Assembly: GCA_030704615.1 (NCBI GenBank)
Contig: CM060731.1
Location: forward strand, 22,258,001 to 22,322,000
From: Takakia lepidozioides
Taxonomy: Eukaryota; Plantae; Bryophyta
Reading direction: 5' to 3'
Length of the DNA stretch: 64,000 nucleotides
Positions within the stretch are counted from its first letter, which is position 1, and every line of letters begins with the position of its first letter. Shown here piece after piece: positions 1,217-29,050 of the stretch. A program made the translations under genes and the position numbers. The notes under the pieces are model-generated. The model worked only from the letters and a program-made list of their open reading frames with translations, ran no database searches and was not told the DNA's origin.

Positions 1217-4200
1217 TCATGAACTGTCTTGGTTCTGCGCTGTTGTGGCCGTGGCCGTTGGAGGTACCACCTTCCACTGCTGCAGACTTGATGGACATCT
1301 CAGTTCAGCAGATGGTTTTGGCCAACTGGCTTCATATTTTTGCACCAGTTGGTCAATGCGACGAAATTGCCATGGCCACCGTGACCGGTACAAAAATTGT
1401 CTGAGGTCAAAGCGGTTGTCCTCAGTTGAATAATTCTGGTGGTTCAAAGTATCCAAAGTCAGTACGAGGGTTACCGCAAAAATCAAATCACTCCCTAGCG
1501 GGCCTGGGAAGCGCACAAGGTTTCAGCCTACTAAAACTCAGGAGAAGATGCTTTATTAGGTGAACATACCTCAGCATGGTACGAAGGTGTTAGAGTGGTC
1601 ATTTTGTGTCGATTAATGGAGTAATACTTGAAAAAGTCTTTCACTTTCATCGCCACTTCTCCCGGTCTAAGACATCCATGCCAGCTTGCGCAAAGTTTCT
1701 GTTGAAATCCTCACCCAGAGAGTTGCCCGCAGGAGAGGTTACATTACAAAATGGCACTGACAGGACAACATGAAAACAACTGGATGCTAACAAGTATAGC
1801 AGCTATATTACCTTCAAACTCTTAAGAGAAACCTACAGCACTGAATATATCTACTTCAGTATTACATTGCTCCACATGCACAAAGCAACAGAGATAAGGG
1901 GGCTATTCAAGAACCTCGAACATAGAGACGGGACCACACATTTTCATCTTCCTCAATCGCCCATAGATGCCAAGCTCCTCGTATGTCATGCCCATGTCAA
2001 TTTCATCAGTCTGTGAAAGCAAGTTACAAGATTGATGAGAAAGTCTACAATTTTGCAACATGGTTGATCAAGGTCATAAGTATATACACAATTCCGAACA
2101 CCACATTTACTGAACAAACTCCAGACAATATCTGCAGTCGTTACCCAAATCGACAATCAGCATCCTTAATGCTGTTCCAATGCTGGTTCAATTGATGGAA
2201 TTAGTGCTTGAAGGATCCTTTCTCTCATCAGCTTGCTAACACCAGCTGCCTGTGACTACGTTAAGACTCATAGCCAAAGCATTGTACTTCAGCCAATTGG
2301 CTAAAAAAAGGGTGTACCTGTGTATAGTCCTCAGTGATTGGCTCCAGCTCTGCTGTTGGCGGCGCAACTTCAACTTCTGCTAATGTTTTGAACCCAAGGT
2401 TGTGAGCACCCCACCGTAAGAATGCTCGAATGTCTTGTTTACTAAACCCTCCGATTGGATTTATGTCAGATGAACTGCAGTCATACTGCACGACCAAATC
2501 TTAAAACTCAGTGATGTACAATGTTGATATCTATAACATTTCTTTGAGATGGACAAGATTAACTAGTTGGCAGAGGTTTGAACTGACAATTTGCAAAGTT
2601 TGTCTTCAGATGTGGCCATAAAGCCAATACTCAAGAGATAATGAAACTCTGAAACTGAAACCGTGGCCTAGATGATGAGATCATGACCTTGGTGAAATAG
2701 CCCCGAAGACCTTCATCAACATTTGCACTTCCGAGCACAAAGGCCTACTCCACACCCATGGCATTAGAGTAGCCAGCATGTAAGCAAAAACCATGCGTAT
2801 TTGTGCTTGTATGTTCTGCAAAGCAAGATTCTCTGTTTGCGTTCCTCCACGCACCTGATTTTTAGTTCAGTGTCATCCATGTCAGAGCTGCAATTCTGAA
2901 ATGTGACGCACATCAAAGTAGCAAGATAGTCGACTTTGCTTATTCAATCAAAACTTGAGATGGAGCAGATAATTTTTAAGAAGCCATTGCTGTGTCTAGA
3001 GAGTACATGTATATTCTAGTTGCAATAGCTACACATCCGATGTCAGAGGAGAGCAACCTGATAAGAAACATAAAAATCAAGAAACACTCAATGGAAGTAA
3101 TCGAGGGTACAGGGAAACTATTACACTGCATCTGAAAGGGCCTGTAATGATTTGAGCCCGAATTAAGACGGGGATATTACTTCTGAATACTCAGGCGAGG
3201 AGTCGGCAAGTATCATACCTTGTAATTCAGTTTCTTGCCCGGAAATATACTTTCAAATAGTGATACCAAGGCTTTAACAACAACATCAATATTGACGTTA
3301 AGATGTTTGGCGCCAATCTCTGCTGCCAATTGCTTAGCCCGGTCTCGAGTGCCTTCCGAGCTGTACTCAATAAGAAAAGTGAATGATCTCTGCTGTAAGC
3401 TAATATGGACACAGAAGATATCCCAACTTAAAATTCCTTGAACTTCCTCCACACTTCAGTTAAATAATCAAAGAAAACAAGAATTAAAAGAAGGCATTCA
3501 TATTCCCACAAAAAAATCAAGGTTGATTATACAGACCTATTCTCAGTGCCCATATACACTGTTAGTAGAAGTCTTTGGGCAAGTTCTTCAGCAGTTTCTG
3601 GAATTTCATCCATCTGATAATTGCCAATGCGAATGGCATCTGCAAGAACCTGCTTGTCACCCTCCTTCACCGCTGCATCCAAGTCCCAAAAGAATATTGT
3701 GAGATTCATATGAAGTACTTTATCAGATATCTCCAACTGAAATCAATATGCCCACATTCTGTCACGACATTGCCGCAAGAGTGTACAGTCAGTAGATATG
3801 AACCTTTGATAACAAGCTGGCACATACAGCCAACAATGGCAGCTACTGAGGAGCTGTCCGCACCCCCAGAAAGTGGCAACAAGAATCCTGTAGCGCTGCT
3901 ACGACGTAGGTAATCCCAGAGCCAGCAAGCCGGACCAAGAGCCATCTCTTCCTCTTGGTCATGATACCGCACCTGCCACAGCATCCACAACCTAATAGTG
4001 TAGCCCTGCTTTGAAAATTTGGGCATCAACGGCTCAAAGATGAATCTGGCAAAGAAATTGTGGATAGTTATAACAGAGGGAGATGAAATCATACTGGTAT
4101 GGGATTGTCGTGGATGTGGTTGACGATGTCTATGGATCGTGAGAGTTTGAACTTCACTGGAACTGATGGAATGCGGGGCTCTTGACTGGCTTGTTCTCTG

Positions 4201-6048
4201 AGACTGCTTATTGAAGCCCTGTAATCTGCAACCTTCAATCCCAATGGGCTGTCAGAGCCATGAGGACATTCCTCTGGTCTTCTGTACAGTCAAATCAAGA
4301 GCAGATACTGGTAGCATTGTGTTCCATTCTGTGATTAGGAAGCTTATGAAGATGAAATTAGCTTCTTTCAACAGGAGTGCTCTTTGTAAGTAAGACTTTG
4401 AGGACTCCAGAAACCTGGCATTTTACATTGAACTTGGGAATTCAATGGAAAATAAAGCTGAATTTGCCAGTAAAGTACTTACAGAGGTCAAGTCCACGAC
4501 TGCTACCACAACTTCAACGTCCATCATGGAGAACTGTGAGCCTTGTGCAACAACATCTCCATTCACCACTACGCAGGCACATCCATCTGCAAGCATCATT
4601 CCATCCATTAATTTATCAACCCTAATTTAAGCTACGCAGCATCTGTGGTGCACAATAAGCTAAAGAGAGTCAACTCACATATTCGAGGAATATGTAGAAA
4701 CCAGGGAGCAAAGAGATAGAATAAGCATATGGGAACTCCAAAACAACAACTCAGACATAGAAGAAGCCAGAAGGTTAATTGAAAAGCACATGAGCTTTAC
4801 ACGCTAGGAGCAGGCAAAGAAAGTGCCATAGTAAAGACGACCTCTATCGCAGCCCTGCTGATTAGCATAAAGGTACACACCACCAGCTTTGCGAGTTGCA
4901 CTTTGCATCAACTCCAGCCTTGTGTGGAGCTTCCGCAGCTGGTGGTGGCTACCGCTTCCATTTGCAATGATCTCAACTCCATTCAAATACAAGCCCACGT
5001 GGGGCGCTAACGGTGTAAAAAGCTCCTCGCAGGTCTCAGAGGCCACATTCCTGTTGTGCGTTTAGCCATGCTTAATCAAAGAAAATGGGTTAAGACCAAC
5101 GTGCCGTCTGTCACCCTGCCACCCCTTCCCGCCCCCCAAGAAAAGAGGAAGTTAGGGGTGTAACTTACGTGTCCTCGAAGGCAAGGTATCCATCACCAAA
5201 AGGAACGGTTGCTTGTCCATTAATTTCCTTGATGCACTCTGGGGTCTCAAGCTGTCGGAGACGTTTCCAGGCAGAAAACCATCGAAGCTCGCGGTAATTT
5301 CCATCATTGGCTAGGTGAAGTTTAGGTCGAATGAGCAGAATTTGACTATTGAGACAGTAAACTCTGCAATTATACCGAACTCCACGTTGTTCCACTGGTA
5401 AGCCGATGTCGCAGACCATTCCATTGGTGAGGTCCGAAGCTAAGATTTCTGCCAGGCACTCCCATCTAGCAGTGCCATTGTTTTAGATGTAAGCTGCGAG
5501 TTCCATCGTGACTACATAGAATGAAGTGCACTGTACTCTCAAAGATGTCCAACTGGTGGATGATTACTCCAAACATACAACAGGCTATTGCCTAATGACG
5601 TGAATTCTCATGCTTATCCAAGACACACCCCTGTTTTTCATGAAAATCACTAACAACAATCTCATGGACATCGGAAATTGAACATGTGATGAATCCGACG
5701 TGACTGTGGTCTAGCATACTCTACCGAGTCGCACATGATCAGCACATAGGCCTTGGAGAAGACACATATATAGGTCGGCGATTAATCCTTTCAGGTTAGT
5801 ATTACAAAGAAAAAACGACAATGCATGAAGGACGGGTTGGAAAGATCATCGTACGAGTGCATCAGAGTGTCAGACTCCAGAAAATGATCTTCACAGCCAT
5901 ATCCTGTGAGCTCAGGTCCAACACGAAACACAGCTCCAGCTTCACGAGCCTCACGTAGGGATTGCATAGTGCGTAACAGATTTCCTTCGAAATCCATGGC
6001 CCACTGATTCAGATTGCATGTCGCTACAGTTATCACCTTCCGACCCAT
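1217..6048 (-). pseudogene. Glutamine-dependent NAD+ synthetase (multi-exon), apparently disabled
   Basis: Exons translate to NADS motifs: [109 protein letters not shown]. There is a frameshifting deletion of about 10 nt at ~2740 ([17 protein letters not shown]), in-frame deletions at ~5907 (GPEL--TGY) and ~5242, and CDGGR is changed to CDRGR. Confidence 0.85.
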
Positions 6049-6947
6049 GATTACTTACAACGCTTGAAATATCAATTCCACATCTCCGACGTCGTTCATT
6101 TACAGCATCATCGATCAGGCTCGTTCATGTGGGCCAAAATTAGAAAATATAAGTGGCTGCAGTCTGCAGTTAGAGATTATTTTAGCTTAGAAGCAATTAT
6201 AGTGAATGTAGGCCTTTTGTAGCTACGAGCAAGTACCAGTGAAACCAAGATTCTGCAACGGAGATTGTGTTGTCCAAGCCAACTTGCAGCATCAACACTA
6301 CACAATATACAAAGATTAGGTTGCATTCAGTGCTGCTTACAAGTAGAACCCGAAGATCTACAAATGCAGAGCAAACTCTGATATCACTTTCCAGGGCACG
6401 GTGCCATGGAACCCGTAATTCCCTCCTTTTGCCGTGCTTCCCCTCCTCTCAATTTAGGATTTAATTCATCTCCGCATTCATGAACAAGATCGGATGAGAA
6501 GTGCTTGTAAGTCTTGCGAAAGTGCCTTGAAGTACAATCACAAAAAACAGCAAGTATGAATGGGGTGGCGTAGGAGTCCTTATACTTATTTCGTGCACGT
6601 GACCTCGGAGACGGCACCAGCTGTGTGGACGCGCAGACTGCGTTCGTAGGGGAAGTGGGACGACAAAGAATCTCGAGGAGTTTCCCTCTTCACACCAACA
6701 AGCGTTCAAGTACTTCTTCGGATTTAAACCCCGCAGTCTACAGATCAAGCAGACTGTATATATAAACATGAGGAACTAGTGGCTCTCTGTTAACCTGTTA
6801 GATCCACATCTTGGTTTCCCCTTGGTTTGATGCTTGAGGGATGCTTGACATATGTGCTCTTTCCAATGTCTTAACATGCATTGCTGATTTTGTGGACCTT
6901 GGCAGGAGGAGAAGCATATGCTTCCTGTCACCTTCAATACCCTTATG

Positions 6948-7071
6948 TACTAGAGAACGGGCCGTGTTTGGCCGATTCTGCCTTGTAAGCGGCCTTTGGG
7001 CGAGCCCGTCAGGGCGAGCCCTATGGCCACGCACAGGGCAGAATCGGTCAAACACGGCCCGTTCTCTAGTA
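6948..7071. mobile_element. MITE-like foldback element (~122 bp) with TA flanks
   Basis: CTAGAGAACGGGCCGTGTTTGGCCGATTCTGCC...GGCAGAATCGGTCAAACACGGCCCGTTCTCTAG, about 35-bp near-perfect inverted arms with TA on both sides. Confidence 0.75.
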
Positions 7072-7249
7072 CGTTAAAAGCAGGTGTGGCAGATTCTGCC
7101 ACTTTTTCGAGAAGGTGGACAATCGTGAGCTCACCGGTAGCCGACGTTGACACTAGCGAAATTTGTAACAGGAGTTTCTTGTGTATGTATTTCTTAGTTT
7201 CTCAGGATTGTTTGCAAATTTGGCTTGTTTTCAAGCCCTACATCACCTA

Positions 7250-8330
7250 GTCTACCGACACCTTGCCGAGCCACCCCATCTCCCGCCACGTGCCGATGCC
7301 CCCACCGTCGATCCCCACCTCTTCGAAACGCCCGATCCCCCCTACATCGATCCCCGCTAGCAGGGACTGCTTCCCCGATCACTCCCACATGGCGCTCCCC
7401 ACTCCGTCGATCCCCCCTACGTGCCAACATTCACCGAGACCTGATCGCCGAGACCGTATGTGGCGGCCCCCGGCCGTCGATCTCCCCTCCCATCTACGGG
7501 TTGATCCCCTGCGCCTCCGCTCCCCCCTACGTCGATCCCCCCTCCCATACAGGGACTGATCCCCCAGCCCAGGGGATTCCACCACGTGCTCCCTGCGCCG
7601 TCCACATCCCCTCCGTTGATACTCCCTGCAATGGGGATGGATGAGGGTAGGAGGAACGGCAGATGACACCAAAGGGCCACGTGGCGGTCACCTCACCGTT
7701 GATCCCCCACTCCCATCAACGGCGCGATGCCCCTCCCTCCGCTCCACCTTCAATCCGCCGCAACGTGGTGGTCCCTCGAACCCTCTATCCCCTGCACATC
7801 CATTGAACCTTAATAAAATGGGTGATGTGGGTCATCCCCCTCCATCCTCCTGCGCAGGGGATGGATGATAGTCCGATGAAGGGCGGATGACACTGCAGGG
7901 CCACGTGGCGATCTCCTCACCGTCGATCCCCACTCCCATCAATTGCGCGATCCCCGTGCCTCCGATCCCCCCTCAGTTGACCCCCTCCAATTCGGGGAGT
8001 GATCCTCCTCCCGTCATCTGCCGCCACATGGTGGACCCACCAACCGTCAATCCCCTGCACATCCATCAAACCTTTACAAAATGGATGACGTGGATCATCC
8101 GCCCCTCATCCCTTGTCATCCTCCCGCGCCGGGGATAGATAACGGTCCAATGAAGGGCAGATGACACTGCAAGACCACGTGGCGGTCCTCTCGCCGTCGA
8201 GCCCCCCACCCCTTCCCATGAACGGCGCGATCCCCTGCGCGTTCCCCCTCGATTGATCCCCTCCAATTCAGGGATTGATCCCCCTCCCATCATTTGGCCG
8301 CCGCCATGTGGTGGTCCCCTCCCTATCCAC
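7250..8330. repeat. GC-rich degenerate tandem repeat with a dense GATCCCC motif; probable TE subterminal region
   Basis: About 20 (C/T)GATC(C)n motifs in about 1 kb. Three related units of roughly 230-270 bp share GATGACAC..CCACGTGGCG..CCGTCGATCCCC, and two of them share CCCTGCACATCCAT. Confidence 0.75.
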
Positions 8331-8554
8331 AAAAGCTTTAAATGCGCTATACACCTCACCGCGCTTCGTTCTCTCGCATCTATTATTACCAATAAGCGAC
8401 AACTTGAATCTAATCCCTCTTCGATACCCTAGCCGGTACCTGGGTACCGCTACCCCCTGGTTATAGGGCCCACCCTCGAAAGGGGGCAGTAGCCGGGAGG
8501 CGAAGTGGCTCTTAATTATGCCGGTCTCGGCCGGAGTCTTCTCTCTGTTTACAG

Positions 8555-9490
8555 GGGATTTGGAGACATTGGCAAACCTTGTTAGAACTAGAAAGATGGA
8601 GACCTTACTTGGCTCAATCTACAAGTTCCTTACTACTTTGGGGACTGAATCATCTGCAATGCAAGTGGGATTGGATTATCCTAAAACAGCCGACATTATT
8701 TTTTGCGAGCTTCCAGACGGATAGATTGTTGATCTTGTTGATCCAGCATTATGCTCCGACCTCAGTCATGCCCCTGTGTGGAATGAGTATTTGCAATTAA
8801 TTTGGGATTTTTTTATTTTGTTTCCTCTTCCTTCTAAGCTTAATCTTCTCATATGTACCTGCACAGGACGTAATTCTTTGACTCCCATTGTTTGGTGCTC
8901 AAAACTTGTACATATTGAAATCCAGTGACCAGGATGGGCTAAAGTAATTAAAAAAAATGCTTTATCCAAGAATCCGGATAATTTTTCTTGCTAATATGTT
9001 GCAACATTTTCTACCTGCATCTGAGATGACAATGTCACCAAATGGTGATCATTATAGAGAATGCAAGGAGAAATCCCCCGCATTCTACCAGACAATATTC
9101 ATGGAGCTATATTCTGCTAAGGGGGCCAAGGTTCTAGATTTGACTGCTTCGAGAGGTAATATTGCTTCATTCTTTATGCTTGCCTCTTTGTAATTATACT
9201 ATTAAGGAGGCCAAGGTTCTGCATATGTCTGTTTCAACAGGTAGTATATATTACTTCATTCCCTATGCTTGTCTCTTTTGTTGTTAGACTACTCTTAACG
9301 TGGAAACGGTTCATCTTACGATTGCTATATATTATTGGCCGTCTTCCTTGCTCTTGTAGGGAACTTGGTGAAAGCCGCAATTATATCCGGCAGACACATC
9401 ATTGGAATGGAGAAAAACTTTGAGATGTTCGATGACGTTTTGAGGCCTATGATGGACGACCTACTGGGCCACCCCCTAGAAAGTCTGTAG
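8555..9490 (+). pseudogene. N4/N6 (beta-class amino) DNA methyltransferase-like relic with a spliceosomal intron
   Basis: ADIIFCELPDG (motif IV-like position) precedes EKSPAFYQTIFMELYSAKGAKVLDLTASRG. A GT..AG intron (9156-9359) splices in frame to NLVKAAIISGRHIIGMEKN, matching the C-terminal pattern of the N6_N4_Mtase family. In-frame stop at 8722. Confidence 0.65.
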
Positions 9491-10823
9491 TGAAGTATGT
9501 GGACACATCAGATGGCAAGGGTGATGCGTGAGTGAGTCATCTCACTAACCTTCTATGAATTGGTCTGTTTATTGTTTCCCTTGATCTCTTTAATATGAGT
9601 GTGACCGTATGACCACATTTGTGTAGGCACGAGGCAAAGGAACGAAGGACCTTTGGGTACCTACGCTGCTGACATACCCCATGACCCCACAGCTGTTTTC
9701 GATCTCCCAATCTACGTAGAGGCTGAGGTCCAAAGACATGCATCATCAATACAAGACAATGAGTGGGATGACCAGATGATCTAGACACAGAATGTGAATG
9801 GATGTTTGGGAATGATAGTTTTGTCTATGTCTTGGACAAGGCTACTGAGGCATGTGAACTGTCAGTAGTAATATGACGCTAGCCTGGTCGATGATCTATC
9901 AAAATGTGTAATAGATTTGAGATCTGAGGACACTACTCATAACAGATTTGTCAGATAGGGAAGGGGCTTAGTAGTACATGTCTTCCTGTCGGATGTTGTG
10001 TCTGAGCACAATGGCCTTGGTGGAACTGAATATAAGTGAAGCTTGATTGAGATGAACGTTCGAGGTTGGATTTTACATTCAAGGTGGCATTCATCATGGC
10101 TGATCAATCTAGTAATCCCTGAATATGATGTTGGCAATTTGGAGACCTCATATATTATCGCTTTGAACATTAACAATGATAGTGGACTGTCAAGAAGCAC
10201 GTTTGTTTTCTGTATTTGAAACATTCAATTTAGACATGCTTCCCCTAACAATGTAAATGCATACTCTATTCATTGTCATGATATAATTTTTGGATTTTGT
10301 CTCTTTTCATTCTTTTGTACAAGGCGTCGAGTTAACATTGCTTGCGTAGGTGTGCACTGATCTCAACCTAGAGCATCCGGTGGTCTGTCCTTTAATAAGA
10401 TTAGTCGGGTAAAAACCATCGCCTGAAGTTGGACAAAGGTAGATGCTATGATTTCAGGTTTAATGTTTTCTGGATTGAGGTTCGACCATGACCTATGGTG
10501 AACGAAGGTGTCCCTTTCTATGGGTAGTTGGGACATTCCAACATTCGGACCTAAGTTGAACGAAGGTGGCTGCTTCTCTCCTGATATAAGCACCTATTAC
10601 GTTTATGGAATGTGATCTTGCATTCAATTACAAACTGTAAAATGTGCTTTTTCTTGGGCAGGTTCGTTGGATAAATTCAAATGTTCTTGTCGACCTTTGC
10701 CACTGATGGAATTCATGTGTTGTTAATTGACAGAATATGAGCTCAAGGCAACATGGTTGTTGGCATTTTTGTCCCATAGTTTCTAAGCAAATAGGCCAAA
10801 ATCTGGAAAAAATCCCAAAATGC

Positions 10824-10922
10824 GCTGCTCATAAAGCACGGAGAGTAGTTAATCAGATTCGTGGTCGTTCATATGAACAAGCACTTACGATACCGGAATT
10901 CATGCCTTATCGAGCATGCTAC
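10824..10922 (+). pseudogene. rpl22: Plastid rpl22 fragment (NUPT)
   Basis: Translates [32 protein letters not shown], close to plastid L22. Isolated, about 100 bp. Confidence 0.85.
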
Positions 10923-10934
10923 TCAGAGTTTTTT

Positions 10935-11155
10935 TTTTAAATTCGGAAAATAGCACAAGTGGCTACAGAGTTTTGCAAAACTAAGGCATATATTCTGTTC
11001 ATCCATTCAAATTAGGACAGAATCATCCACATCCATAATTTCATCCATTCATATCATCCACATTTGGCGAATTCATCCATATATATATATATATTTTTGA
11101 GAAATTTGGCGATTTCATCCATGAAAAAACATGGAATTTCTACGGAATATTCTTT
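10935..11155. repeat. Dispersed repeat (MITE/TE fragment); inverted copy at 46400-46625
   Basis: TCATCCACATTTGGCGAATTCATC and TTTGGCGATTTCATCCATGAAAAAAC are reverse complements of sequence at 46425-46505. Confidence 0.75.
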
Positions 11156-12054
11156 TCTATTTTTTGAGGTCGCCATTTGGCGAAAATTAGTCAAAAAAAA
11201 AAAACGCTGGTCCCACTGATCCGACGATGACGACTCCCTTTTATAAGTGGGTTGACTATAATGGGTGACATACAACATCCATCCAGCTATGAAGCTTCCA
11301 ACCAACGCCCTTAGAGTCACTTTCCATGTCACTTTCACATTCGCTGATATCATTCAAGATGGCTTTGACGAAGGGTTCTTGTATCCATTGACTCTTTGGA
11401 TGGACCTTCGGGCCTCCATGCGCATCCCCTTTGCCGTGTGCACCCGCTGAACTATACCATAGCGAGAATGTGACGTGTAATTTGACCAAGACCTCTTGAT
11501 GAGTAAGCACACCGAAGCTACTTGTACATGACATCAGCGGCACCGAAGCGGATCTACATGGAAACTGGCCCTACCTCACTGAGGCACACCAAGTCCACGA
11601 TAGAGCGGCCGGGAATGTTGACTACATATTCTTGCACGCGTTCTTAAGAAGTATACCGCATATATATATCCTGATCATCGCACACATTTGGACTCATCTT
11701 GGTTTCCTGCAACCTAGTCCCATCACTGCACTGCTGCAACGCCGCTCTCAAGCTCTCTCTCCTCACACCGAACCCGAGCTCCGTGTGGATCTTCCCCAGT
11801 AATATAAGAGCTCTCTTGTTGGACCTACGCTTTCTCACTCTCACTCTCTTTGCGTACTGGTGCTACTTTGGCTGTTGTGGTTCTGCAGTCGCTGTACTTG
11901 GGCCTGAAACGAACGTAGAATTATACATCTCCCTTTACAAGTAAGTTTTTAATTCTCCCTAGCTTATATACACGAAACTTCGGTACAGATCACTGCCTCT
12001 CTCAGCAGTAGAGAGAGAACTATCCAGGCTGTGGGTACAGATCAAATTAGCATA

Positions 12055-14408
12055 ATGTTCAGCCTAGTTCCAGGAGATATGAGCTCTCAACGTAAGCAAC
12101 CCAGCTCGCAAATTGTGTTGAGGTGGCACGAGGTAGTGGAGAGCGTTAAAATTCAGTTAATGACGGCCGACCCAACATCTGCGCAGTCTATTGCCACCTC
12201 TGAAGACTCAATATCGTGTTCAAAGAGGGTAGATGATCCAGCTCTTAACGATGAAGATAAAAAGAGAAACTTGGAAAATATTCAAGCAAGATTGAATATG
12301 GAGCAGCGAAAAGATCAACGTGAAGGTGCCAAGTGGGGTAGTAAGCCCCGGGGAGCTGTAGCTAAACGGTGGAGGGATATCCAAGGTGCCGGCGATTGGC
12401 AGGGTTTGCTTGACCCCATGGATCCCGTGCTGCAAGAGGAGATTATCAAGTACGGAGAATTCGCACAAGCGACCTACGATGCATTTGATTATGAAACTAC
12501 ATCCAAGTATTGCGGCAGCAATAGGTCAGTACTGTAATCTGAATCGTGATTGTAATCGTCTCAACCCTGATATAGTATTCCCCATGACAGCCTCTCTTTT
12601 CTCAAGCTTCCCATGATCCAAAATTACAGGGGGAAACAGAGGCCGGTCACCCGTCGTACTTGTCTTTACTACGAGAGATCGAGAGTATGGATTTTTTTTT
12701 AGATAATCTAGATCGACCATATCGCTAGTCCTGAACAGGTTGTGAGCATGCCACTTGAGCACATGTGCAGATGAATTAGTCAGCCCTGAGGTTTGACAGA
12801 CTGTGTTAGTGTATTAATGTAACTTCAGCTGACTAAATATTATGTACATGTCTTGCTGCAGGTTTAGCAAGAAGAAACTTCTTGGGAAAGTAGGGTTGGG
12901 CGACAGTGGCTACGAGGTGACTAGATACATATATGCCATGTCCGATATCCACATACCCAACGTTCTCCACAGGTCACAACAGCCTGATCCATGGAGCCGA
13001 GATTCCAATTGGATGGGGTTCGTTGCTGTTGCAACCAACGAAGATGAGATCACGAGGCTAGGCAGACGAGACATTATCATCTCCTGGAGAGGCACTGGAA
13101 TGGCTCTAGAGTGGGTGGATGATTTCACGGATTATCTGATACCCGCGAGATCCACGAACAAATTTAACGCTGAGGAGGCGAGCAGTAACGTGAAAGTGGA
13201 GAAAGGATTCTTCAGTCTTTATACCTCCAAAGATGGAAACACGAGATACAACAAGAACAGTGCAGCTGAACAGGTATGTTGAATGGCTGTCTTCTGTCAA
13301 GATTTAGAAACATGATTTGAACCATGTTTGAATTTGTTTGAGATCAGGGATAGCCTGGGAGGCCTAAGTTGTGCTCGATCATTCCTTCTTTCATTCAGGT
13401 GTCTTGGACAGCTCCCTTCCCCATGACCTACATTTATACGCTATTGCTATGTACAATGCAGGATGTTGTCGATATTGATTGAGTACATTTTCAGCTCACT
13501 TTTCACCAAGTATAATGCAAAGCCTTGACCGGTCATCTCATGGTATATCGCATGTTCTGCAGGTGAAAGAGGAAATTCGCAGGCTTGTCAGTCTATATGC
13601 TGATGAAGAGCTCAGTATCACCGCCACTGGCCATAGCCTTGGGGCAGCTCTTGCTGTTCTCAGTGCCTACGATATTGCTAAATCCAAGCTAAACGAGCGA
13701 CCTAAGAATCACAAACCACGGCAAGGTCGCGATCAACTCAACAAAACGCCCTCCGTAGAAAAACTCTCTTCGCCTTCAGCAACAATGTCGGAGCCACTTC
13801 AAGAAGTAGATTCCAATATGAGGAATCCCACTCCATTGGGATCAATTGCTGTGTCAGTATTCTCATTTGCGGGTCCCCGAGTAGGGAATAACGCTTTCAG
13901 GGACACAGTGGAAGAGCTCGGAGTGAGCGTTCTTCGAGTTGTGTGTGTACACGACATTGTCCCAAAAGTCCCTGGTGTTTTTGTCAATGAGAAGTTCTAC
14001 GGCCGCAAGCTGGGCGCTTTGAGAAACATAGTGAGCCCGTTACTTGATCGCCTCCCGTGGACGTACAGTCATGTTGGTGTGGAGCTGAAGGTGGACAATG
14101 CAGCTTCTCCTTTTTTGAAGGCCACCAATGATGTAGACTACAGTGACTTTCATAATTTGGAGGGCTATCTGCACTTGGTGGATGGTTATCATGGGAAAAA
14201 GTTGGCCTTCGCCTCTGCGACGGGGAGGGACCATTCTTTGGTGAACAAGTCTTCTGGGTTCTTGAAAGCAAGCTTACTGGTACCTACTTCCTGGTGGCAG
14301 GTGGAAAACAAGGGCCTGATGAGGACTATCGATGGGCGCTGGGTTCAACCAGACAGACAGAAGCCGGAGGATAGACCTTCTAACAACGCAAATGACGACT
14401 GGGTTTGA
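12055..14408 (+). CDS. Phospholipase A1 (DAD1-like, lipase class 3); exons ~12055-12524, 12862-13273, 13563-14408
   Basis: WRDIQGAGDWQGLLDPMD, YGEFAQATYDAF, SNWMGFVAV, ISWRGT, catalytic TGHSLG, FAGPRVGN, DIVPKVPG, HNLEGYLH. GT-AG introns keep the frame. Start codon uncertain. Confidence 0.92.
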
Positions 14409-16347: not shown

Positions 16348-19300
16348 TCACATCCTGCGAAGATTGTCCAAGCGAGCTTGAAGATCGCTGTCAATCCCTG
16401 AGTCATCCCCACCAACCCCTGCTCCTGTGGGTTGTGCTACCTTTGAGGGAGTCGCTTGTGCTGGTGCCGCTGCTATATTTGCAGGAGCATGCACTAGCTG
16501 CAAATCCACACAGATGATCATTACTACACTTGGATGCCGACATCAAAGAGAGAGAGAGAGACGGAAGACTCTAGTCATGAATTAGCAGCATAAGCAGCAA
16601 GGGAGAAAATGTAGGTGTATTCATCAGAGTCTGCTGGCTCTACGTAACCTGCATGCGGTTAGGACAGAGCACTAGACATGAGAGAGAAGACTAGAGAAAG
16701 CCAGGCTTCTCTACACTCAGCCTTGTGATGTCATTTGAGAAAAACCCCATCTCATATGGTTCATAAGTAGCTAAGACTAGGCACCTTGCTGAACATATTG
16801 ATCTCTGGGCCCTTGGGAGATCCTCAATATGAACAAGATAAAGCAGGTTTTTCAGTCCCATATGTGCAGGGGTAAAATAAGTGCAAGTGAGTGGGCTCTC
16901 CATTAACCCTCAACTCTTGACCTTTGTCAATGCAAGAAAGAAGTGCATTGCACCCACAGCGCCCGTGGGACACAGTAGAACAACACAACAGAAGCAGACA
17001 AAACAATTAAACCCCACAGGTCGGAGTGCATCATGCAGGTAAACTAAGCACTTTCAGTCCCCATAGCTAAGGATGCGGAATGTCTACAAAGACAGAAGTA
17101 TCTGTCCTGCGTATCTGTAGCCTTGTGGCCATTGACCCTGCGCCCAGATTGAGCGGAACGCAAAGGGACAGAAACTACCTTCGACGCTATGACTTACCTT
17201 GGAACAGACAATTGATCAGAGCTTTCCAGATATCCTCTAGAACTCCCTTAATCAAGCATCAATCTGCTGTGTGTGATTTACCCAATAAGTAGGTCCCAAA
17301 AGGGCCTGGGTTGTTGGCTCAGCCTCAAGATTTTCAAAGTTGGCAAAGTGAAAAAGAGAGAGAGAGAGAGAGAGGAAGAGCAATCTAATATAACCACTGG
17401 CAGCCAAGAAAGCCCATCAGACAGTTGAACCAGTTGACAGAGAAAGAGAGTTGTGCAGCAATGGGTTGGGATTCTAGAACACACCTGAGAATCAAGGTCA
17501 ACACCAATTTCATCAAGCACTTGACTAACAAGCTCATCGGTCTCCTCTTCCTCCTCATCTCCTTCCAAAGCGTCATCAATAGCATCCCCCATAACCTCTG
17601 TTGTCATTTCCATTCTCTCATTCTGCCTCTCAAACTCCTGCATGATTTTTTGCAATGCTGGCAGGTTGAGTTGCTTGTTCATCTGCCCCATGGCTTTTGT
17701 AACCCCCTTCATGGCTTCTGCCATCGCCTGTGTTGATTTAAGTGTCTGCCAAACCATACCAGCACATCAGTTAAGACAATCAACAATATGCTAAAGTCAT
17801 TGGAGGATGATTGAAATAAGAAAAGAAAAAGAGTAGAGAATGATCAGAGTGAACACATCCGGCAAGTAGAAAAAGAGTTGGGAAACACTCTATCAGGTAA
17901 ATGGAAACATGGACAATGTGTAACCTCTAATACCATTACGGCATCAACAACTGACCTGTTGGAATGCCTCCTTTGGCGTCTGCCACTTCTAATAGGACAA
18001 ATGTAACTAAGGTCATGTGACACAGCCACCAAATCATCAAATTATGCAGAGGGAGGTAAAGCCATGTCCTGACTTTAACAAAACCATGCGCAGTCCACCT
18101 TAGGCTTTACACCCAAGACACTATCTGATGGGCTGCACAAGCCTACAGTTTGGAGGACTCGACAAAACCCTCAGAAAGAAGGAATATAAAAAAGCACTGA
18201 CCTGAATGCGCAGAGAGATCCCTTGAAGCTGCGATTTGAGACCATAGAACTTGGTAATTTGATGTCGTGTCCGTATTAGATCCTTTGCCATCACCCTGAC
18301 AGCGCCCTGCAATGTTCAGAGTCGTATGTCAGATAGGGAGGAGCAAGATGGAGAACAGGCTTGAAATTGCTGGCAGAAGCCTTGGGGTCATAGACCCTGC
18401 TCACAGAAGACGGGTGTGAATCAGAGTCTTAAGAGTGTGATAGTCTGACAGTGTCTTGTGGGAATGAAATCGGATGCAGCAGAAGAATAGAGGACCTTGG
18501 GGCAATTGGTTGAGGAGACACAGAGGATGGAGTGTGAACCACCGAAGGCTGTTAAATCTGCTACATCATTGTTTATCCCATGATCACTCTTGCAAATTCT
18601 GAGCCTTGATAGAAAAACTGCCTATTGTATGACCTAAGAAATTTTGAAACTTTCATTGCAATCTGTCATTCAGTCCACAACCTAGACAGCATTCTGCACT
18701 ACAGTGTCTGCAAGTGGTTTCTAAGTTGAAGGACTGGATGCTTGTTAAACTTAGGGAGATTTTAAAGCATGCTTGCCTAGGGTTGCATTATGTGGAATTG
18801 TGGGCAATTCCAACATTGGATTTCAAGAATGTCAATGACTAAGAAAGCCCCCGTGGTCTTGTGATAGATTTGTCACCCAAACAAGAGGGGTAAGGCGCCG
18901 CGATAGAATATGGACCATAAGGTTATGGGGGTAATGGAAAACTATTGAACTTCTTACTGACTACAAACTCCGAACTATCAGCGAAAAATAAAGATGGAGG
19001 TATCGATTAGACGAGTAGGAACCCTTTCACACAAATCCCTGATTGACGTTGTCCATGATAAGACAAGAGGGAATTAGGAATCTACCATTTGGCCTTGCTT
19101 TGCAGTCTTTTTTATTTCAGCAATCAGCTTCTTCTCCTGAGACTGCAGATTCTGCCTCTCTCGCTCGATTTCTCGAATGGATTTATCAAGCATGCGTTTG
19201 TTCTCCCGCAAAAGCTCTGTTAAGATAAAAAACAGTCACACATGTGATTTACAAAGCATCCTAAATGGAACCTCCCTACAATTGAACTGAACCACCGGTA

Positions 19301-20136: not shown

Positions 20137-21659
20137 ACATGCTACGTGACACATAAATATGTTGGTTTTGTATGGTATAGTAAGCGTGAAGGTTGCTCTT
20201 GTCTACCCAAGGGACTGTGTTCCCCCTGTGGTGAAGGGGCGGGAGGTCTCGCATCCCGCCGAAGGTACAGCATTGGGTCTGAAGTGGGTGATGCGAAGCC
20301 CGAGACCCGTTCAAGACATGGCGACATCGCTTCCCCACCCTGCACTGCAATCGAAGCCAGGTACTCAAATTATCTCTTTGCATAATTTTTTGTTGGGTCT
20401 GTGAAGCGATGCAGGCTCTTCACCACCCCAGCAGAAGCTGATTCATCTTCGTTGAAAAGGTTCACATGGTGTTCCAGGCAGTGTTATCCTTAGAGGAATT
20501 TGCATGGGTTGGCTGTTATGCAATTTCAAATGTGGTGCAGGCAATTTTCAGCTCCTTTCTTGGTGTAGAGGGCTAGTGGCTACAGATTGATGTGGCCTCT
20601 GCAGAAAAGTGCAATGCCACATTCCCAGTCACAATGAGGGATGGATAAATGGAAAAAAGATTACTCATCGACCGACGCTGCACGCTTTGGCGAACCTGTG
20701 TGGGCATAGAATCGCTGGGCCATTCCTAGTTTATGTACCCACCAGGATTTAGGAATTGAGCCATAATACCCAGACTAATCGACCGTAGTTAACGCTGGTC
20801 CTGCAACAGGAATTGATTGTTGTTACATAGGCTGGTACAGACATCTTCTAGAAAACACCGTGTTGAATCTAGCACTACTGCTCTAGACCCAATCTGACGT
20901 AAGATGTGATAAATGTGGCAGTGGCTGTCAAATTGATGTTTTACTGGTGTGTGCATACAGGACAAGCAATGAAGATAGAACAGCGTTGGCAGGAGTTCTT
21001 CTCAGATCCTCCACAGTGCTGGGACAAAAGACTTGAGAAGGTGCCAGTACTTCCATGGTGTATGTGAAAGAGTCTGTCAAACGGTGCTTGTGACTGAAGC
21101 AGCATGATGATATTATGTGGACTACATTAATGACAATTTTGGAAAGCAGCAGCATTGAGTCTTGGTATTGCTGTCAGTGGGTGGTTGCCAGACCTACTTG
21201 GCCTTTCGTGGTTGTAGCCTCAACCATACAAGGCAGCGTTCAAAGCTACAGCTGCTCATGAGCTGCCGGTTCGTGGTTTCTTCAGGAAAGTCCAAGCTCA
21301 CCAGACTTCACACATAAGCGAACAAAAGAGGTCCTGTGGATTGAGAGATGGTCACATCGCCCTGGGGTGAAAGAAGAGCTGGTAGATGGTCAAGCACAAT
21401 CCAGTACTGGTCCTAATGTCAATATACAACATGGAACTCCAAGCAGAGCATACAGCGGGTATTGTTTTGCCAATGATGGATCAAGGCTTCCAACTCTAAC
21501 AATTAGATTTGGTACATTTTATTCTCCAGTTCGTTGACTGCAGTGAATTTTGAAACGTAGTAAGAAGCCTCCTCATGGAGAGATCGTGGATAAGGAGCTT
21601 TAAGAATTTATGTGATTTGGTTTGCCTCTAAGAGTTTTGAGTAATGCAGGCTGGCAGCG

Positions 21660-24600
21660 TTGAATCAAGCAGAGTTATTTGTTGGGGATCAGACTGACTG
21701 CAGGGGTAGCACATCCACCATAACCACTGCTTTTGAAAGAGCTCCAAGAGAGGCAGTCAAACAGAAACCTTCTGGAACTTGTGGGAAAGAGGCAATGCAC
21801 ATTTTCAACCAACCGGGCATTCAGGCAGACTTGAATACTTATGTCTGTCTCTTGCAGGAGAGTATCAACATGAAAGACATGGCAAAGGGAAAGCAGGTGC
21901 ACGCTCACATTATCAAAAGTGGATTCAAGCCAACCACATTTCTACTGAATACCCTTGTTGACATGTATGCTAAATGTGGGAGCATGAAGAATGCTCGTCA
22001 AGTGTTCGATAATATGACTCAGCGAAATGTGGTCTCATGGAACTTGATGATCGCAGGATATGCCAAGCACAGGCTTGGTAGGGAGGCTCTCATGATCTAT
22101 GAGCAAATGCAACGGGAAGGGGTGACTCCCAACAGGGTCACGTTCATTTGTGTCCTCAATGCATGTGCTGGCCTAGGGGCCTTGGAAAAGGGCAAAGAGG
22201 TCCATGCTGCTATCGTGAATACTGGAATTGAGTCATACATGAATTTGGAAACTGCCCTTGCTGGCATGTATGCAAAATGTGGGAGCATGAAGGATGCACA
22301 TCAAGTATTTGACAACATGGCTAAACGAGATGTGGTCACATGGAATGCCATGATCGCAGGATATGCGCAGCATGGGTCTGCTACGAATACTTTCGAGATC
22401 TATGAGCAAATGCAACAGGAAGGGGTGACACCCAATAGAGTCACATTCATTTGCATTCTTAAAGCATGTTCCAATCTGGGACTCTTGGAAAAGGGCAGAC
22501 AGGTCCATGCTGACATCATCAAAGCCAGAATTGCATCATATATTCATCTAGAAAATACCCTTGTCGACATGTATGCGAAATGTGGAAGCATGAGAGACGC
22601 TCGTCAAGTGTTTGACAATATGGGTCAACAAGATGTGGTCTCATGGAACACCATGCTCACAGGATATGCTCAGCATGGATGTGGTAGGGAGGCTTTGGAA
22701 ATCTATGAGCAAATGCAACAGGAAGGGGTGACGCCTGATAGGGTAACATTCATTTGTGTTCTCAATGCGTGTGCCAGCCTAGGAGCCCTGAAAATGGGCA
22801 AAGAGGTGCATGCTGACATCATCAAAGCTGGAATTCCTTCATATATAAATTTGGAGACCGCACTCGTTGATATGTATGCCAAATGTGGGAGCATGCAGGA
22901 TGCATGTTGGGTGTTCAACAAAATGGCTGAACGAAATGTGGTCTCATGGAATGCTATGATTGCAGGATATGCTCAGCATGGGTGTGGTGGGGAGGCTTTT
23001 GAGATATACGAACAAATGCAACAGGAAGAGGTAACACCTGACAGTGTCACATTCACTTCCCTTCTGAATCTGTGTGCCAGCCTAGAAGCCTTGGAAAAGG
23101 GCAAGCAGGTCCATGCTAACATCCACAAAAGTGGAATTGTGCCAGATATTATTTTGGAGAATACCCTTGTTGACATGTATGCCAAATGTCACAGCATGAA
23201 GGATGCGCATCACGTGTTCGACAACATGGTTCAACGAGATGTGATCTCGTGGAATGCTATGCTTGCAGGATATGCTCAGCATGGATGTGGCAGGGAGGCT
23301 TTTGGGATCTATGAACAAATGCAAGAGGAAGGGGTGATGCCTGACAAAGTCACATTCATTTCTGCTCTCAATGCATGTGCCAGCCTGGAAAAGGGCAAAG
23401 AGGTCCATGCTGACATCATCAAAGCTGGTGTTGCATCATATGTTAATTTGGACACTGCCCTTGTTGACATGTATGCTAAATGCGGGAGCATGCAGGATGC
23501 ACACAGAGTGTTCAACAATATGGGTCAACGAAATGTGATCTCATGGAACGCAATGATATCTGGATATGCTCAGCATGGGTGTGGTTGGGAGGCTTTGGAG
23601 GTCTATGAGAAAATGCAGCAGGAAGAGGTGACGCCTGACAAGGTGACATTCACTTGTGTTCTGAATGCGTGTGCAAGCCTAGGAGCTTTGGAAAGAGGCA
23701 AGCAGTTCCATGCTGACATCAGCAAAATAAAAAATGCGCCAGATATTATTCTGGAGAATACCCTTGTTGACATGTATGCAAAATGTGGGAGCCTGAAGGG
23801 TGCTCATCAAGTATTTGACAATATGTCTCAACGAAATGTGGTCTCCTGGAGTGCAATGATCGCAGGGTGTGCTCAGCATGGGCTTGGTAGGGAGGCCCTG
23901 GATCTATTTGAACAAATGCAACAGGAAGGCGTGAAGCCAGACGGTATCACCTTTACATCACTTCTCTCAGCGTGTAGCCATGCAGGCTTAGTGCATGAAG
24001 GCCGTCACTACTTTGATTCCTTGAGTCGAGATCATGGCCTCACTCCGACAGCGGAGCATTTTGGCTGTATTGTGGACCTTCTTGGCCGTGCAGGGCGATT
24101 GGATGAGGCTGAGGACTTCATTAACAAAATGGCAATCAAACCAGATGCGTTGGTGTGGAGGCCTTTGCTAGGTGCGTGTAGAGTTCATGGCAATGTGGAC
24201 GTTGCAGAACGTGCGGCAAAAAGCATCTTGAAGACTGATCCACAGCACCCGGCAGCTTATGTGCTGCTATCAAACATTTATGCTGCAGCTGGCAGGTGGG
24301 ATGATAAAGCAAAGGTCAGAAAAATTATGCATGATAGAGGTGTCAGAAAGGAGCCAGGGCACAGTTGCATTGAGGTTGACAAGCTGGTGCATACATTTGT
24401 TGTAGAAGACGATTCACATCAGCAAATCAAGGAAATTCATGCCAAGCTGAGGAGATTGCATGGGCAGATGAAGGAGGCTGGTTATATGCCTGACACTTGC
24501 TTTGTATTGCATGACTTAGAGGAAGAGCAGAAGGAGCTTTCTCTTTGGCACCACAGTGAGAGGCTGGCCATTGCTTTTGGACTCATCAGTACACCCCCTG

Positions 24601-24761
24601 GGGCACCTATCCTCGTCATCAAGAACCTCAGGATATGTGGTGACTGCCACACCACCACCAAGTTCATCTCAAAGATTGATGGGCGAGTCATTGTTATACG
24701 AGATGCCAATCGCTTTCACCACTTTCAGGATGGCGTTTGTTCTTGTGGAGATTACTGGTGA
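21660..24761 (+). CDS. PLS-class pentatricopeptide repeat protein with E1/E2/DYW deaminase (organellar C-to-U editing factor); first in-frame ATG at ~21795
   Basis: Regular P-L-S triplets, P2-L2-S2, E1/E2, PG box (PGHSCIEV), HSERLA, CGDCH and terminal DYW. Uninterrupted 1033-codon ORF. Confidence 0.95.
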
Positions 24762-25400: not shown

Positions 25401-26527
25401 TAACACTTATTGGAGTTGAGCCAAACATCTCTCTACTTTCTTGATATGTTCCATGGTACCCCTTCTTTGGTTCCTGCGGAATGCATGGCGATGTATCAGC
25501 AGATGTACAGAAAGAGACATTCTCAACATTAGCTCCTGCTACTATCAAAGCTCCACACGACAGCTGGCAGATGGGAAAGCATGGGAAAGCGAAGGTCAGA
25601 AGAGTGTTGGGGGCCAGATGTGTGAGGCGCAAGTGCATTGTGATCGATGTACTGGGTGCTTGCAATTGCATTCACATAAAACGAAATCCCATCTTGAGCT
25701 CAATAGATATGAGTGGGTGGCTGGGTGTGTGCTGATGCGTGCTTTATAGTGTCACACCATTTGGACAGCATAATGCATTTCTCTTTGGCACCAGTGGGCA
25801 ACTCACTCCAGCTTCTGGAATCATTGGCACACCCCAGAGACACCTATCCACACCTTCCATGGGATGTTTGTCCCTATGGGCCAAAACAAACTTGCCCTTG
25901 GTGAGATGAAGTTGGAAGGGCAAAATGATATAGGCCAGTGTGTGGTGCCTTGGGATTTACTGGGGCCTCTCCATAACACTAAGGCATTCTTGCTGCAGCT
26001 TACACATTAAATATGATCACGGTGCCGGATCACTCGGCTAACCTGCAAACAGAGGTGGAAACTTAATGGCTCTTATGATATTGGTTTCGCCAACAACTTC
26101 CAAGCCCGTCAAATGGTCATTATCATATGCAACAGGCGCTACAAGATAATGTTTTGATATTCCCATTTGAATAATAATGGAGTTGTGTGCATGGAATGTG
26201 TGAATGTGTCGGACTTAGATTTTCGTGTGGATGGATATGGCATATGTGATATTTTCTTCAGAAATCTGGAAACTGGCGGTAGGATTAGCACTCATGGATT
26301 TTTCTTGGCAAGTTTACAAGGTCCACAAGTAGAAGATGTCACAATCAAACTTCGTAGGATTGCTTTTAGGTTGTACCCTAGGATCAACTGGGTACTAAAT
26401 GTACAAGTACTAGGGACTTTCGAGTCATTGGGGGAGGGTTGCCCCGGTTATGGCCCTTAGAAGATGGCCCTTCCAAACGTAAAGCAGTAGCCCTTCAGGG
26501 TGGTGTTCTCTCTCTATCTCTCTTTCC

Positions 26528-27110
26528 TTTGAACAGTAAACAGAAGCAGAGAGGAAAGGGAGAGTGCAATTGCCCGTTGTGTGGGCAACCCGAAGACAAT
26601 ATTCGTTTTCTGATTCACTGTCCGGGGTACTCTCACCAGAGAGAAGCTCTCCTCCAATCTATCAAGAGAGTTGTGCCTGTACCTCTGTTTGCCAACTTTG
26701 AAAGTCTCGAGGCTGAGCCAAAAGCCCAGGCCCTTCTGAGGCCTAGTTTTTGGGCAAATCACACACAGCAGATTGATGCTTGTGTGAAGGGATTTCTAGA
26801 GGATATCTGGAAAACCCGAATTAATTCTATTTATAAAGGTAAGTCTTACTACCAATGTCAGCCCCTGACGGAGGTAGGTTCTGTCCCTTTGGTTTCCGCT
26901 CAAACTGGGCGCGGGGTCAATGGCCACAAGGCTACGGCAAACAACGTCTTATGAGTACATTCTCTATCTCTCTCTGTCGCTTTTGTCTTTTGTCTTACTA
27001 CCGACGTCAGCCCCTGACAGAGGTAGGTTCTGTCCCTTGGTGTTCCGCTCAAACTGGGCGCGGGGTCAATGGCCACAAGGCTACGGCAAACAACGTCTTA
27101 TGAGTACATT
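26528..27110 (+). mobile_element. Two tandem 5'-truncated LINE family A copies (~26528-26960 and ~26990-27110)
   Basis: CNCPLCGQPEDNIRFLIHC zinc knuckle through ...GVNGHKATANNVL*. Duplications TCTCTATCTCTCT and CTTTTGTCT. Confidence 0.9.
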
Positions 27111-27274
27111 CTTTTGTCTGATGAAAATGAGTTAGGCAGAAAACTATCCTAAACTTGTTTCCTGTCTGTGACATGGGCAAGGCCATCAAGTATGACCTCA
27201 AGGGTTCACCCACTCTAAGCACTTGACTGAAATTTAAACCCAGGGCGAGAAGCCTACCTTAGAACAGCAAACAG

Positions 27275-29050
27275 ACGTGCATCCTTCATGCTCCCACATT
27301 TGGCATACATGTCCACAAGAGCTGTCTCCAGAATCACATCTAGCAGGATTCGGGCGTTGATGAAGTCTGCATGGACCTCTTTGCCTTTTCCAGGGCTCCC
27401 AGGCAAGCACATGCATTGAGAACGCTAGTGAATGAGACTTTGCTGGGTGCCACTCTTTCCTCTTGCATTTGCTTATATATGTCAAGAGCTTCCCTACTAC
27501 ACCCAGAGAGAAAAAGGGGATTGCAAATGCCCGTCATGTGGGCAACCTGCAGACAATATCCACTTTCTGATTCATTATCCTGGAGACTCTCACCAGAGAG
27601 ACACCCTCTTCAATTCCATCAAGGGAATTGTTCCTGAACCTCTGTTTACCAACTTTGATAATCTCGAGGCTGAGCCAAAAGCCGGGGCCCTTTCCACATC
27701 TTGTTGAACCATGGAGGCACCCCCTTCCTTGTCATTTGGTTATAGAGCTGGAAAGCCTCCCTATCACACCCATGCTGAGCATATCCTACAAATCATCACA
27801 TGGAATGATACCACATCTTGATGAGCCATATTGTCAAATACTCGATGTGCCTCGGTCATGCTCCCACATCTGGCATACATGTTAGCGAGCACAGTTTCCA
27901 GGATCAAATTTGGTGCAGTTCCAACTCTTATGATGTTAGCATGGACATCTTTGCCCTTCTCTAAGGCACCTAGGCTGGCACACACATTCAGAACACATAG
28001 GAATGTGACCCTGTTGGGTGCCATCCCTTCCTATTGCATTTTCTCATAGATCTCAAAAGCCTCTCTTCTGCACCCATGTTGAGCATATCCTGCAATCATT
28101 ACATTCCATGAGACAATCTGTCGCTTAGCCATACTGTCAAACCCTGCTATCATTATATTCCACGTAACCATATCTCGTTCAGGCATTTTGTCAAACACTT
28201 GGAGTGCATTCACCACACTCCCACATTTGGAATACAAATCGACAAGGGTGTTCAACAGAAAGATGCTTGGCTTAAATCCACTTCTAAGACTATGGATGTG
28301 CACCTGCTTTCCCACTGCTAGGTCTTTGAGTTTGATCCACTTCTGCAAGAGAGAGATTTAAGTAGTGGACTCTGCCCAAATGCCTTGTTGATTCAGAATG
28401 TGCAGCACCTCTTTCAGTTGTCCTGCCTTACATAGCGTCCTCACATTCGCATTAGTGTCAGAAGAGTCCTCGTTGACTACCTCTCTTGCTGCTCTTTCAA
28501 AACCAGTGGTGATGGCGGAGGTAGTACTACCACAGCCCCCAGTCCGAAGTCAAAGCTGTGCCTCATTTACCTCAGCCATCCTGCATGACTGCAAACTCTT
28601 CCTTACACAATCTCTTTGCCTCACGCACAAGAGAAACATAAAAAAACTAGAAAACCTTACGGATATTACCAAGGAGCTTGTGGGGCTCAAGGCTACCCTT
28701 CAAGCAAGGCTGATGGTGCATGCTACTCATGCTCCTCCAAAGCCATATGGCAACACTTTGTCCTTTAAACAAATGCCATACCACCCGGGTCTTGACTCCT
28801 GCAGCTCCAGTGCGCACACCAGAATTAGAGCCATACTCGGGCACCCATCCACCATTAATCCCTTGTACTCAACCTTGTATAGTCCAACAAACTCTGAATC
28901 CGAGAACCTCCTTTTTGCACTCATATCTGATGTCTTGCGACCTTGGAATTGTTTGTGAAAACCAGGAGTATGCAGCTGAGCAGCCATCGCTTCAACCACA
29001 GCCTCATACAGACCAGGCCACAACTTCTCACAAACATAGTGGTGGTGATC
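27275..29050 (-). pseudogene. Truncated PLS-PPR pseudogene, inverted paralog of 21660-24761
   Basis: [31 protein letters not shown] and [22 protein letters not shown]. Contains stops, frameshifts and a LINE insertion, and lacks DYW. The N-terminal region (SAITTGFERAARE) is homologous to the + copy. Confidence 0.85.
27505..27692 (+). mobile_element. LINE family A internal fragment inside the PPR pseudogene
   Basis: CKCPSCGQPADNIHFLIHYP...FTNFDNLEAEPKA. Confidence 0.85.

Follow-up and report, generated by a model that had tools for sequence, protein, structure and literature searches.

Introduction

The described systems that lie closest to the gene family reported here are characterized below. 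The algal transposon systems: in these, DNA transposons carry accessory genes with methyltransferase (MTase) domains. The giant DNA transposon Sola1-1_Ec32 of Ectocarpus encodes a ParB-like plus MTase protein (PMC12477816), and PAG2 of the Bostrychia Plavaka elements combines PF01555 with a SET domain, with inverted-repeat arrays lying beside PAG3 (bioRxiv 2025.02.11.637652). The host 4mC writers: these are the low-copy enzymes MpDN4MT1a/b of Marchantia (bioRxiv 2021.02.12.428880) and N4CMT of bdelloid rotifers (PMC8885841, PMC10406627), which have demonstrated activity and keep an SPPY-type motif. In N4CMT and CcrM the target amino group is held by this motif's first residue together with the carbonyl that follows, and a Tyr has been modelled as stacking on the base (PMC10406627). 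The VANC system: VANC of the VANDAL transposons is a transposon-encoded anti-silencing protein, whose target motifs are tandem repeats that vary between related elements (PMC5735166). For land plants, a review reports few N6A-MTases (PMC4738411).

Here we describe the remains of an MTase-like gene in a 64,000-nucleotide stretch of DNA from the moss Takakia lepidozioides (contig CM060731.1; hereafter the window). With moderate confidence, we read them as a 5'-truncated, broken copy of a plant family derived from β-class MTases, likely an accessory gene of a DNA transposon and encoding a non- or weakly catalytic DNA binder. A full-text search of the literature found no description of this family for land plants.

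Remains of a spliced methyltransferase-like gene between two plant genes

The window is land-plant nuclear DNA with a 1038-codon PPR gene with a DYW end, spliced housekeeping genes and retroelements. The MTase-like remains lie between an NAD synthetase gene on the minus strand (Pfam matches at 3709-6054) and a lipase-3 gene on the plus strand (Pfam matches at 12833-14405). This intergenic stretch also holds three short very-high-copy repeats (6947-7109, 8462-8546 and 10825-11200), the first with 61-nt inverted arms. The gene remains and the repeats directly upstream of them comprise the following features:

7150..8460, no strand assigned: degenerate GC-rich array, upstream of the gene remains, that repeats GATCCCC / CCACGTGG units; repeat families D9/D11/D14
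8462..8546, no strand assigned: short MITE/SINE-like repeat of ~85 bp, present in very high copy, immediately before the 5' side of the gene remains
8557..8820, plus strand: pseudo-exon with the end of the family linker, the motif-IV region IIFCELPDG (family LLFADVPEN) and an xPxWN box
8796..8884, plus strand: junction at which ~55-60 family codons (the LHDDGVL...DLQSP block) are missing; candidate acceptor AG at 8865-8866
8867..9155, plus strand: pseudo-exon with a degraded 5' part containing stops, NGDHYRECKEK (DGxPWRGxREK in the family) and DLTASRG, the opening half of motif I
9156..9359, plus strand: 204-nt phase-1 GT-AG intron within the SAM-binding motif I, splitting a Gly codon, at a site conserved in the family
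9360..9527, plus strand: pseudo-exon with GRHIIGMEK, corresponding to strand 2 and the acidic SAM-ribose residue; TAG TGA at 9488-9493
9528..9626, plus strand: 99-nt GT-AG intron at a site like that of the family's intron after the MTase domain
9627..9790, plus strand: last pseudo-exon, PLGTYAADIPHDPTAVFDLPIY (family PIRVLNADMFxTPSxxFELPPY)

An earlier note on the window had placed at 8555..9490 an intron-containing gene with two spliced peptides that mirror the C-terminus of β-class amino-MTases. Both are present as placed: EKSPAFYQTIFMELYSAKGAKVLDLTASRG is read in frame at 8951-9155, followed by the intron at 9156-9359 and then by NLVKAAIISGRHIIGMEKN, and the observation of spliced MTase-like gene remains is confirmed. 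For comparison we used a profile of 60 β-class MTases from 84 phage loci, chosen by their DPPY/DLPY-type motif. On it the C-terminal piece, once spliced, reaches 16.4 bits, with none of 2000 shuffles above 5.1. Since splicing lifts this score from the 2.5 bits of the unspliced piece, the intron in motif I is real. On a family profile built without the window the spliced peptide reaches 41.1 bits (2000 shuffles, at most 7.0).

The peptide ADIIFCELPDG, which the note had set at the DPPY/SPPY position, lies in another frame (8557-8820) and is immediately followed by TAG at 8722-8724. By itself this N-terminal, motif-IV piece is not significant, either on the phage profile (-0.6 bits) or against exon B alone (4.2 bits; shuffles up to 6.5). 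Joined to the preceding family exon end it scores 13.7 bits, a value attained by none of 5000 shuffles, and the proposed position is the one at which hhalign puts the family's ADVPEN on ADPPYG. The last exon scores 10.8 bits, with one of 5000 shuffles higher, and is the top match of the six-frame window. As the motif-IV piece and this last exon score significantly, the gene remains run from ~8557 to 9790: the range given earlier contains the two peptides but stops short of the further exon at 9627-9790. In the degraded 5' part of the 8867..9155 exon frameshift models add only 1.7 bits, and a family-like PPPRK is read at 9469-9483 in a frame other than that of GRHIIGMEK.

General domain searches do not recover this form. 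Pfam detected no MTase on the window pieces, a PDB sequence search of them likewise none, and neither they nor P0004 and P0016, all read with introns or as single exons, matched PF01555 at E up to 1. PHROGs DNA-methyltransferase families match P0001 (E 0.006) and P0004 (E 0.011 and 0.093). Word-based homolog searches returned nothing for P0001 (113-361 aa), P0001 residues 28-96 (362-2000 aa) and P0015 residues 25-155 (371-2000 aa).

Relatives on plant-like contigs and a shared intron

Among 1.84 billion representatives, phmmer found one match, P0004 (E 2e-7), with 30% identity by BLASTP. Its gene call reads through an in-frame intron at the homologous site (DFSASTG / intron / SSIIVCRRSGRHIIAFEDD); it clusters with others, 12 members in all from 12 contigs at 86-99% identity, and its ESM Atlas features give PF01555 at 0.94. 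A degenerate motif made from P0004 matched 38 metagenome loci, 26 of which are relatives on intron-bearing, plant-like contigs, and we infer a plant host for them; the other 12 matches were dropped as unrelated. GT and AG occur at the homologous intron site in 18 of the 21 loci that hold both flanking exons, the remaining three comprising one with an altered acceptor and two frameshifted before the donor. The length of this intron modulo 3 varies among copies, and the exons remain open. Lesions were found in seven of the 26 metagenome relatives. The P0004 members and the metagenome copies could in part be one locus from different individuals. The homologous copies that the note had proposed looking for are thus found, and with them the shared intron site.

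Other collections yielded little. Exact peptide patterns from P0004 found no relative in metagenome contigs, P0004 had no relative in plasmids and only two weak DNA-methylase matches (E 4-6) in phage, and viral contigs held no family member (0 motif matches and one 19-residue match); an Atlas search with exon B of L108 gave no usable match. In a DNA run from the same plant, the gene remains have a summed contig depth ~2-8 times that of the flank, a depth that is no copy number. Related, internally deleted sequence is present elsewhere in that run, its contigs skipping internal parts.

Were the resemblance due to chance, or the sequence bacterial contamination, one would expect Pfam and PDB to show no MTase for the window pieces, as is the case. 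Against this stand the 41 bits on an independent family profile, the intron site common to the relatives and the plant genes on both sides, and we regard the explanation as practically negligible. The argument from the GT-AG intron that the gene is eukaryotised and not a contaminant holds, given the shared site and the flanking plant genes.

Decay of the window copy

The window locus is almost certainly a dead copy of the family, and it makes no working protein. Its lesions are the TAG at 8722-8724, the loss of ~55-60 codons after ~8800, and stops in the 5' part of the 8867..9155 exon and at 9488-9493. Furthermore, the first ~170 N-terminal residues of the intact relative L095 have no match in the window. 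The earlier note had treated the locus as a gene and overlooked its pseudogene state, namely the TAG, the absent middle block and the further stops.

If the locus were instead a working gene in the living plant, the lesions would have to be assembly errors. Such a reading draws on the contigs of the same plant's DNA run at 8796-8884, where the window differs from all matching contigs: these carry extra sequence, with 83 and 139 unaligned letters on either side. The lost codons may hence reflect a gap in the assembly or a polymorphism, which leaves the TAG unaffected. The contigs match 8517-8795 with no other letter, and because this match is exact the TAG at 8722 is present in the DNA run too. 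In the contig that starts at 8798 there are 9 mismatches and 31 gaps, and the listed differences cluster at 8838-8884, not at the stops 9488-9493. Considering also the unmatched N-terminal ~170 residues of the intact relative, a working gene is very improbable. Two further runs, guessed to be RNA, have no contig over the gene remains and are uninformative on expression either way.

A β-class domain with an altered motif IV

In hhalign, the family matches the 60 phage β-class MTases with a probability of 95.4 (E 1.7e-8, 204 columns), and column-shuffled templates used as a control reach at most 1.0 among 20; the family profile excludes L090 and L122. The motif-I half supplies most of this signal; on its own, the motif-IV half reaches a probability of 6.5. 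The alignment is colinear with motif IV before motif I, pairing ADVPEN with ADPPYG and DWQCGVG with DFxMGSG, and the window pieces follow the same order. The best solved-structure profile match of the family is rotifer N4CMT, at E 0.16. Two structure models were available, with mean pLDDT of 35 and 43. That of P0004 is poor and unusable; the second, made for an intact relative by reading through its introns, has a pLDDT of 43, with residues 51-100 at 51-67. A Foldseek search with the latter is headed by CcrM (E 2e-3), with no match reaching E 0.001, and among the matches listed nearly all are SAM-dependent MTases. Descent of the family's C-terminal domain from β-class DNA amino-MTases is supported at the level of sequence. 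What had been proposed as a divergent amino-MTase family is borne out by the 26 metagenome relatives, their non-canonical motifs and the β-MTase profile match.

Motif IV departs from the canonical form throughout. The 17 relatives that cover it read DVPE (14), DIPE, DILE and DIFE (one each), so that all have D-x-x-E, and the canonical [DNS][PL]P[YFW] is absent from all 27 rows. The window reads CELPD. As D-x-x-E is family-wide, this is a drifted form of a non-canonical motif and not a product of decay. In the phage set (from loci L001-L084), which was chosen by its DPPY/DLPY-type motif, DLPY stands in place of DPPY in 29 of the 60 β-class MTases.

Motif I and the acidic residue after strand 2 read DWQCGVG(G) and ALE in the metagenome relatives, DLTASRG and GME in the window, and DFSASTG and AFE in P0004. 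Both the window and the P0004 cluster thus carry Ser in place of the first glycine. Of the 26 metagenome copies, 25 have D-x-x-x-G-x-G, either in a clean reading or with its G-x-G falling at the splice. In the 12 near-complete cores used for dN/dS (L090, L122 and L102 were left out), the values are 0.06-0.15 between lineages (dS 0.85-2.5, partly saturated), a sign of purifying selection, and 0.19-0.44 among close copies (dS 0.06-0.12), which is more relaxed.

Repeat arrays and mobility

Tandem repeats accompany 13 of the 26 relative loci. Of the array-bearing loci, 11 were picked by hand, and in eight of them the word CCGAGAGG recurs, often as a palindrome and with periods of 73-128 bp; as these eight belong to three lineages, they are not eight independent cases. 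Near the window copy the array is built on another motif, GATCCCC in place of CCGAGAGG, with 14 of the window's 16 GATCCCC words falling within 7150..8460. Its bins from 7206 to 8210 have a summed contig depth ~0.6-5 times that of the flank. Possibly this is the element's own motif array, with a putative linkage to the gene. The 85-bp repeat that follows it has a summed depth of ~73,000 at 8497, versus 27 in the flank, and at its edges (8461/8462 and 8546) lie the loose ends of 35-118 contigs (run X1).

Near the window copy we found no transposase, terminal inverted repeats or target-site duplication, and Pfam detected no transposase on 13 pieces of relative contigs, which are at most 5.7 kb long. 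The linked transposase that the earlier note had suggested seeking therefore did not appear in either place, and of its claim of a mobile family the multi-copy part stands (12 contigs, 86-99%), while mobility itself is left without transposase, terminal inverted repeats or target-site duplication. A search for CACTA ends gave no pair with a target-site duplication; a pair agreeing at 9 of 14 positions, at 7151/9492, was dismissed as chance. On L088 (2076-3204, minus strand) there are ORFs convergent on the family gene, without Pfam support at E up to 1, which we take to resemble En/Spm TnpA-type proteins. No ParB or SET domain was found on the N-terminal exons examined, the 5' end of the gene lying outside all contigs.

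These observations bear on whether the family is a transposon's cargo or a multigene or domesticated family of the host, of which the window copy would be an ordinary pseudogene. The want of transposase and element ends, the strong purifying selection and the intron-rich gene are what a host family would show. Against it, copies are nearly identical and carry lesions here and there, dN/dS is relaxed among the young ones, arrays lie within the gene and around it, and the same DNA run holds deleted derivatives, as would be expected of a transposon. We accordingly consider a host family quite unlikely, and the family to be probably transposon-borne.

The window holds further repeats and fragments. 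The 3' end of a LINE-like element occurs in several copies (26382-26965, 30324-30800, 35900-38160 and 17100-17360), with an RT domain at 37102-38160 on the minus strand. A decayed inverted copy of PPR repeats (27130-28415, minus strand) is kin to the intact PPR-DYW gene at 21645-24761. A decayed LTR retroelement with Ty3/gypsy domain order spans 58418-62687 on the minus strand, with RT at 60740-60964, RNase H at 60041-60340 and an integrase at 58418-59524 that ends with a PHD-like Cys pattern. Ahead of it stands a fragment of a C5 DNA methylase (PF00145, E 1.8e-4, 62421-62687) with an ENV motif near 62390, which is probably the first MTase that the earlier note had counted in the window; DNMT-bearing retrotransposons are reported in streptophytes. 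At 56137-56250 on the plus strand lies ASVYVYKAVGRHLFGMEGNTKFLKSVLVP, a second fragment that weakly resembles exon D of the MTase-like family (HMM E 0.21; tblastn to the loci, E 0.003). Upstream of it, at 53700-55500, are ~50-bp palindromic repeats in both orientations, which presumably resemble CACTA subterminal repeats.

A possible role for the intact protein

The intact relatives are without the usual catalytic signature, and therefore the family is likely a DNA-binding helper of transposons and not a 4mC/6mA writer. As the aromatic residue of motif IV is lost, catalysis may be lost or altered, to judge from the motifs. We propose that the intact gene would be transposon cargo, and the window copy the relic of such an element. 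The intact protein would keep its SAM pocket, formed by D-x-x-x-G-x-G and the acidic residue after strand 2, and would lack the aromatic side chain for stacking on a flipped base. Most likely it would bind DNA at the repeat arrays of its own element, with weak catalysis or none, and in this way help the element stay active.

The intact family might alternatively be an active transposon-borne amino-MTase with a rewired D-V-P-E site that writes 4mC or 6mA on the element carrying it. The Asp of motif IV, the glycines of motif I and the acidic residue of the SAM site are indeed kept at dN/dS ~0.06-0.15, and phage enzymes, too, vary at the second position of motif IV (DLPY in 29/60, chosen by that motif). 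Moreover, algal elements carry predicted N4/N6 MTases, self-marking being proposed for algal accessory proteins, and the best solved-structure profile match is rotifer N4CMT, though only at E 0.16. The base-stacking aromatic is, however, Glu in 17/17 relatives and Asp in the window, and both the window and the P0004 cluster have Ser for the first glycine of motif I. We judge an active enzyme unlikely, and think it fairly probable from the motifs that the family is not a canonical 4mC/6mA writer. The suggestion of an inactive DNA-binding derivative is accordingly the one we favour at the sequence level, D-x-x-E being present in all 17 covering relatives. On the whole, the family-level idea of the earlier note is largely right and mobility is likely, and the sequence evidences no working 4mC/6mA enzyme here.

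A bolder proposal, which we consider doubtful, is that land-plant DNA transposons carry a widespread, unnamed pseudo-MTase, of β-class fold and with D-V-P-E fixed for DPPY, that binds short motifs multiplied in the tandem arrays of its own element (CCGAGAGG in the relatives; here perhaps GATCCCC) and shields the element from host silencing. It would constitute a second, independently evolved VANC-like system, made out of a bacterial enzyme.

The window locus itself is dead and ordinary, and matters little. The family has wider bearing: the amino-MTase-derived cargo of algal giant transposons likely extends into land plants. As its form is missed by Pfam here, surveys of plant 4mC/6mA writers may overlook the family or miscount it as an enzyme. 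A selected, family-wide change of the catalytic motif beside motif-sharing tandem arrays offers a testable case of an enzyme turning into a sequence-specific transposon helper.

Comparison with known systems

With the PF01555 enzymes, such as CcrM, M1.HpyAVI, M.PvuII and the phage orphan MTases, the family shares the order of motif IV before motif I, the GR-x-x-I-G/A-x-E strand and, in its metagenome relatives, the D-x-x-x-G-x-G loop. It differs from them in its spliceosomal introns, its long N-terminal extension and the lack of (D/N/S)PP(Y/F/W).

With MpDN4MT1 and N4CMT it shares a β-class amino-MTase domain in a eukaryotic nucleus. Unlike them, it is multi-copy and without SPPY, its window copy lacks an intact frame, and its profile match to N4CMT is only at E 0.16. 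The analogy with the Marchantia and rotifer 4mC enzymes, drawn in the earlier note, is weak because both keep SPPY/TSPPY and the family does not.

The likeness to VANC would be one of function only, by analogy: no sequence relation is expected, and both binding and anti-silencing are putative in the family.

The Sola1 and Plavaka proteins resemble the family in being eukaryotic proteins with a prokaryote-derived amino-MTase domain in repeated DNA. They are also proposed to bind or modify their own element, and like this type the family is multi-copy, with adjacent motif arrays in the relatives. It is set apart by its occurrence in land plants, its being Pfam PF01555-negative, its D-V-P-E and the absence of ParB or SET from the parts examined. 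The nearest known kind is nevertheless that of the N4/N6-MTase accessory genes of algal DNA transposons, and not that of the Marchantia and rotifer 4mC enzymes.
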